From Camelus ferus (Eukaryota), in contig NC_045696.1 in the NCBI RefSeq assembly GCF_009834535.1, positions 51,214,001-51,278,000 on the forward strand: a stretch of 64,000 nucleotides of DNA. The letters are read 5' to 3'. Shown one piece after another: positions 52,970 through 53,254 of this stretch. Below the pieces are notes generated by a model. The model did no database searches. It was not told the DNA's origin and saw only the letters and a list, made by a program, of their open reading frames with translations. Positions within the stretch are counted from its first letter, which is position 1, and each line of letters starts with the position of its first letter. The position numbers and the translations under genes are program-made.

Positions 52970-53074
52970 GGTTTCCACAGATGTGAAATACAAAAAACAA
53001 CCGTGGGCCATTGTCAAGTCTTTAATTGAGAAGAATACCTGGAGTTCGTTGGCAGGAGTATTTCAAACAGCTTG
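52970..53074 (+). CDS. GRAMD1C: GRAMD1C exon 13 (105 nt, 104 expected), ASTER domain C-terminal part, with a +1 frameshift
   Basis: tcattag|G GTT...CTT G|gtttgt; reads [27 protein letters not shown], then the homologous EYFKQL continues only in the +1 frame after TTGGCAGGAG (53049-53058). Confidence 0.93.
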
Positions 53075-53254
53075 GTTTGTCAATTTCTTGATTTATCTAC
53101 TTTTGTGAGATGGCATTTATTAACAGAATGGATTAACTTTTCATTTGGATTCATAGCAGGAAGTGATCGATGATGTTGGAATAACCACTGAAGTGGTTCC
53201 AACTACCCCACTTGGAATTTCAAAACTTCTAGTTTTCATTGGTCTACCAAACAC

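Follow-up and report, generated by a model that had tools for sequence, protein, structure and literature searches.

GRAMD1C in the wild-camel window

The plus strand of the window (the whole 64,000-nucleotide stretch of Camelus ferus DNA analysed here) carries GRAMD1C, the gene for Aster-C, from exon 3 through the stop codon; exons 1 and 2 lie upstream, outside the window. The Bactrian camel Aster-C protein (P0128) was aligned exon by exon between positions 1551 and 63451, with exon boundaries placed by a script that seeks AG/GT sites. All 17 window exons (exons 3-18 and an alternative exon 5b) have canonical AG/GT splice sites according to this script (Table 1). After removal of one base from exon 13, exons 3-18 correspond to residues 58-680 of Bactrian Aster-C with a single mismatch, identifying the locus as the GRAMD1C/Aster-C orthologue. 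Pfam analysis of the Bactrian orthologue places the GRAM domain at residues 72-153 and the VASt (ASTER) domain at residues 348-494. Exon 13 itself matches PDB chains of Aster-C (E 4e-11), and a hydrophobic stretch in exons 15-16, recognized by eye, was taken as the membrane anchor. Exons 15-18 (55833..63454, plus strand) all lie beyond the reach of the shifted frame described below.

The alternative exon 5b is a 57-nt in-frame exon (FTEHFLPGFFISSLLEVDK) with canonical splice sites, located between exons 5 and 6. It is present in the longest Camelus models (P0123, P0128 and P0136) as well as in P0133, and is absent from the alpaca X1 model P0004.

Table 1 Positions of GRAMD1C exons and of the features around the surplus base, in window coordinates
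Feature	Position	Strand	Remarks
Exon 3	1608-1692	+	First GRAMD1C exon inside the window
Exon 4	10578-10681	+	GRAM domain region
Exon 5	11322-11417	+	GRAM domain region
Alternative exon 5b	11619-11675	+	57 nt; GRAM domain region
Exon 6	16970-17050	+	GRAM domain region
Exon 7	30774-30892	+	
Exon 8	33723-33855	+	
Exon 9	36933-37092	+	
Exon 10	45482-45619	+	Start of the VASt/ASTER domain (exons 10-11)
Exon 11	50515-50633	+	Start of the VASt/ASTER domain (exons 10-11)
Exon 12	52048-52190	+	143 nt; ends CTG AG, phase 2
Exon 13	52970-53074	+	105 nt where 104 are needed; acceptor ends in cattag, donor begins with gtttgt
GCAGGAG	53052..53058	+	Seven bases where relatives need six (Ala-Glu)
TG, first two bases of the premature TGA	53073..53074	+	Third base supplied by exon 14 (A at 54535)
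Exon 14	54535-54711	+	177 nt; starts AA TCA GAT; 100% identical to camel Aster-C
Exon 15	55833-55890	+	Part of the membrane anchor/C-terminus (exons 15-18)
Exon 16	57844-57954	+	Part of the membrane anchor/C-terminus (exons 15-18)
Exon 17	58168-58273	+	Part of the membrane anchor/C-terminus (exons 15-18)
Exon 18	63374-63454	+	Includes the normal TAG stop

A surplus base in exon 13

Exon 12 ends in phase 2 and exon 14 begins with AA TCA GAT, so that exon 13 should measure 104 nt. The original prediction, whose coordinates are all correct, stated that it measures 105 nt instead, that the conserved EYFKQL peptide lies in the +1 frame and that a TGA forms at the exon 13/14 junction. The placed exon boundaries, the translation of exon 13 and the spliced sequence, in which the terminal TG of exon 13 is joined to the A at 54535, bear out all three statements. 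When left unrepaired, the spliced frame breaks in exon 14. Removal of one base, carried out by script only, restores an open frame of 623 residues that runs to the normal stop and shows 1 mismatch with P0128 (M624 instead of V). This restored frame, together with the canonical splice sites of exons 3-18, supports the further statement that the rest of the gene is intact.

The site is highly constrained in length. At this position the solved structures of Aster-C have WSSLEDYFK and WSSLESYFK, and the spacing from the W to the aromatic-F pair (or its S/N variant) is exactly five residues in 142 out of 142 Aster-family proteins carrying the EKNxW motif, these being the motif carriers among 224 proteins collected. 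Given that the spacing is invariant across these proteins, the window has one base too many. When all single-base removals were enumerated by script, deletion of 53054, 53055 or 53056 was found to yield L-A-E-Y, and deletion of 53051 or 53052 to yield L-Q-E-Y, the latter being the repair adopted by RefSeq. Two candidate 104-nt forms of the exon had been proposed; neither fits, as the L-A-E-Y of the camel relatives makes one of 53054-53056 the surplus base. The proposal that the extra base lies outside a long homopolymer was correct, since within GCAGGAG (53052-53058) it extends at most a G to GG. A search of the 2.087-Gb assembly for a second copy or haplotig found the 251-base stretch only once.

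Comparison with camelid protein models

Alignment of exon 13 across camelids, suggested as a check in the original prediction, was performed at the protein level and located the insertion exclusively in the wild-camel model. The L-A-E-Y sequence (SSLAE) is read by the current Bactrian model P0128 and its isoforms, the older Bactrian model P0133 and P0122, an old UniParc entry with Bactrian residues, as well as by three generations of dromedary models (P0001, P0002 and P0136). Alpaca models, including P0004, read L-A-D-Y (SSLAD). At the protein level, the insertion is absent from 2 Bactrian, 3 dromedary and 2 alpaca models. A protein search at 103-2000 aa returned only NCBI camelid models with an identity of at least 98%.

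The sole SSLQE reader among the 142 proteins is RefSeq XP_032335247.1 (P0123), entitled LOW QUALITY PROTEIN: protein Aster-C [Camelus ferus]. Its L-Q-E-Y is what the window encodes when 53051 or 53052 is left out, and since this reading equals the window minus one base, the frameshift was already known to the database. The GRAMD1C frameshift in the wild-camel assembly is therefore already known from the RefSeq record, where it is recorded and compensated. The window and the record also share the wild-camel trio E362, S570 and M624: residue 362 is E in Bactrian and A in dromedary models, residue 570 is S in Bactrian and I in dromedary models, and residue 624 is V in Bactrian and M in dromedary models. 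The record differs from the other camels in having Gln in place of Ala, with the relatives pointing to 53054-53056 as surplus. It should be noted that the LOW QUALITY label is silent on whether the frameshift is an error or an allele.

An older and independent wild-camel model (P0003) passes directly from exon 9 to exon 14 and, lacking exons 10-13, is uninformative about the insertion. P0003 has an unrelated N-terminus and carries about 350 non-GRAMD1C residues after exon 17; it looks like a chimeric prediction. About 18 residues of exon 9 (GLGK...KRLSRV) are missing from both P0133 and P0122. P0133 is also labelled LOW QUALITY, yet has a normal L-A-E-Y at exon 13, and the exon 9 gap may be the reason for its label.

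Shorter sequences in the protein collection were also searched for traces of the locus. Among 91 matches of 30-373 aa, the best with an identity of 94%, there were no camel-derived fragments over exons 11-13 and no fragment ending in the shifted peptide.

Predicted consequence of the frameshift

Four exon junctions follow the premature TGA, which ends 451 nt before the last of them (exon 17/18). As a rule, nonsense-mediated decay is expected once a stop precedes the final exon-exon junction by more than about 50-55 nt. The decay anticipated in the original prediction follows from this rule, as a prediction only. It had also been proposed that any escaping protein would lose the end of the ASTER domain together with the endoplasmic reticulum (ER) anchor. 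The predicted loss of the anchor stands, along with that of the linker, the C-terminus and the final part of the last helix; the Pfam VASt domain would remain whole, its match ending at residue 494 and the shift beginning at 497. Judged by these boundaries, the predicted damage to the ASTER domain is slightly less than had been stated. If the frameshift is real, any protein made despite decay would retain GRAM and VASt but not the linker, ER membrane anchor and C-terminus, and tethering of this anchorless protein at contacts between ER and plasma membrane would be impossible.

An Aster-C null has been studied in mice. Gramd1c knockout mice obtained by breeding heterozygotes showed little change in sterol balance and a mild phenotype (PMC11061533). 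The camel allele, if real, would likewise amount to a loss of Aster-C, with a stop far upstream of the last junction. In contrast to the putative camel frameshift allele, the mouse allele described there is a targeted insertion.

Coding accuracy of the assembly in protocadherin exons

The protocadherin clusters, which contain many large single exons, were chosen as a test set for the coding accuracy of the same assembly. Pfam Cadherin_2 matches the genome at 61 places. Among the 50 full matches clustered on contig C3, 46 have frames open over 788-996 residues; of 10 matches located elsewhere, 8 are open over 829-1099 residues. Together they sum to about 139 kb of unbroken protocadherin frame. 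In each of the four shortened exons of the cluster (L002-L005, G000:C3:98.32-98.86 Mb), homology to paralogues carries on in a different frame. All of their breaks are one-base insertions relative to paralogues, five in total, with one each in L002, L003 and L004 and two in L005. The break in L004, which creates a TGA, coincides with the exact end of a 99.5%-identical segment of the Bactrian model P0229, and L004 is thus probably a real pseudogene shared between the species, as far as this sequence identity indicates. As the L004 break is probably shared with the Bactrian model, the test demonstrates no assembly-specific coding error. It places the rate of coding frameshift errors under about 1 per 45 kb (95% bound), a value that is an upper bound only, the actual rate being possibly much lower.

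One of the shortened exons is unusual in a further respect. Compared with three paralogues, the beta-cluster exon L002 (G000:C3:98563600-98566900) has 216 nt inserted in frame at about position 1394. Its one-base insertion is a surplus A within a stretch of six A.

Origin of the surplus base

A single lesion, found in only one of the available camelid models, interrupts a gene that is otherwise intact. The frameshift is of a kind produced either by long-read indel artefacts or by ordinary young loss-of-function alleles, and the intactness of the rest of the gene supports the original prediction in its choice between a very recent null allele and a consensus error. GRAMD1C as a unitary pseudogene was also considered and rejected, as there is just one lesion, the splice sites are canonical, the stop is normal and 622 of 623 residues equal those of the sister species.

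We infer, with a probability of roughly 0.6, that the extra base is a consensus insertion error or a badly resolved site in an otherwise functional GRAMD1C. The animal would then probably make normal Aster-C from a 104-nt exon 13 reading ...WSSLAEYFKQLE..., in agreement with the treatment by RefSeq, in which one base is removed and the wild-camel product is labelled LOW QUALITY PROTEIN. Several lines of evidence favour an error. The lesion is single and the 623-residue frame is only one residue off that of the domestic Bactrian camel. Every other informative camelid model has the 104-nt reading, the RefSeq wild-camel model P0123, itself marked as LOW QUALITY PROTEIN, being the only one to match the window. 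The spacing at the site is invariant in all motif-bearing Aster proteins (142/142). Finally, the annotators chose to correct the model and did not call a pseudogene.

Residual single-base insertions are a typical consensus error of long-read assemblies, and Watson and Warr reportedly described in 2019 how uncorrected single-base indels in such assemblies truncate predicted proteins. The window resembles these artefacts in that one surplus base interrupts a conserved gene in one assembly only. It differs from them in that the site is not a long homopolymer and in that about 139 kb of protocadherin exons are without a proven assembly-specific frameshift. An error prior of 1e-6 to 2e-5 per coding base would produce tens to several hundred spurious frameshifts per mammalian coding complement. 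Genuine young frameshift alleles number a few dozen per haploid genome. Rough arithmetic gives odds of error to allele of about 1:1 to 10:1. One chromosome-scale wild-camel assembly, not necessarily the one containing the window, is listed as based on PacBio Sequel long reads at 130x (PMC9374477, Table 2). Authors of camel genomes have themselves looked for protein truncation caused by PacBio indels left uncorrected (PMC7468183).

The case for an error is weakened in three ways: the site is not a long homopolymer, the coding sequence of the assembly is not very error-prone in the protocadherin test, and the loss of Aster-C is mild in mice, so that drift could maintain a real null where the population is small. 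Duplication of an adjacent base is also common among real one-base insertions, which further counts against an error.

These same observations bear on the main alternative, namely that the sequenced wild camel carries a real and very young loss-of-function allele, private or segregating, whose mRNA would contain the TGA and be degraded. We regard this as possible rather than probable. The base is present in the sequence outside a long homopolymer, no frameshift in about 139 kb of protocadherin exons from the same assembly was shown to be assembly-specific, the stop precedes the last junction by 451 nt and the Pfam VASt match ends at 494, before the shift. Wild camels are few, which makes drift of mildly harmful alleles plausible. 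Only minor phenotypes are described for Gramd1c knockout mice (PMC11061533), which also speaks for this reading. Against a real allele, the insertion occurs in no other camelid model, and the gene shows neither a second lesion nor any sign of relaxed constraint, only 1 of 623 residues being different. In addition, no camel protein fragment with the shifted peptide is found in the collection among the 91 short matches (best identity 94%), and RefSeq chose a corrected model instead of a pseudogene call. A real insertion whose frame is rescued in the cell, through a cryptic donor in exon 13 or through recoding, is highly improbable: a GT at 53044-53045 would, by eye and simple arithmetic, give a 74-nt in-frame exon (3n+2) with about ten residues fewer, but this site has no donor consensus beyond the GT itself, and the same GT is present in the normal allele and annotated as a donor in none of the camelid isoforms examined.

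Within the literature searched, no loss of GRAMD1C in camels and no link between GRAMD1C and camels was found in print. The finding serves chiefly as a quality warning. A gene-loss screen that accepted this assembly uncritically would score GRAMD1C as absent in the wild camel, whereas the other informative camelid models are intact and RefSeq already compensates the break. Should the allele be real, it would constitute a natural Aster-C null in a critically endangered, desert-adapted camel whose lipid physiology is unusual, and it would represent measurable genetic load in a very small population. Its interest would then be modest, both for conservation genetics and for the still poorly understood question of what Aster-C does on its own.

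Candidate read sets for the locus

Word content over window positions 52000-54800 was compared across 24 candidate sequencing runs. The RNA runs X18-X20 contain 0.13-0.15 of the sampled words, and word shares of this kind are neutral with respect to the extra base. Fourteen DNA-type runs, spanning two organism labels and at least four studies, contain 0.95-0.96 of the 273 sampled words and none contains more. The few per cent of missing words may be the same words in every DNA-type run.
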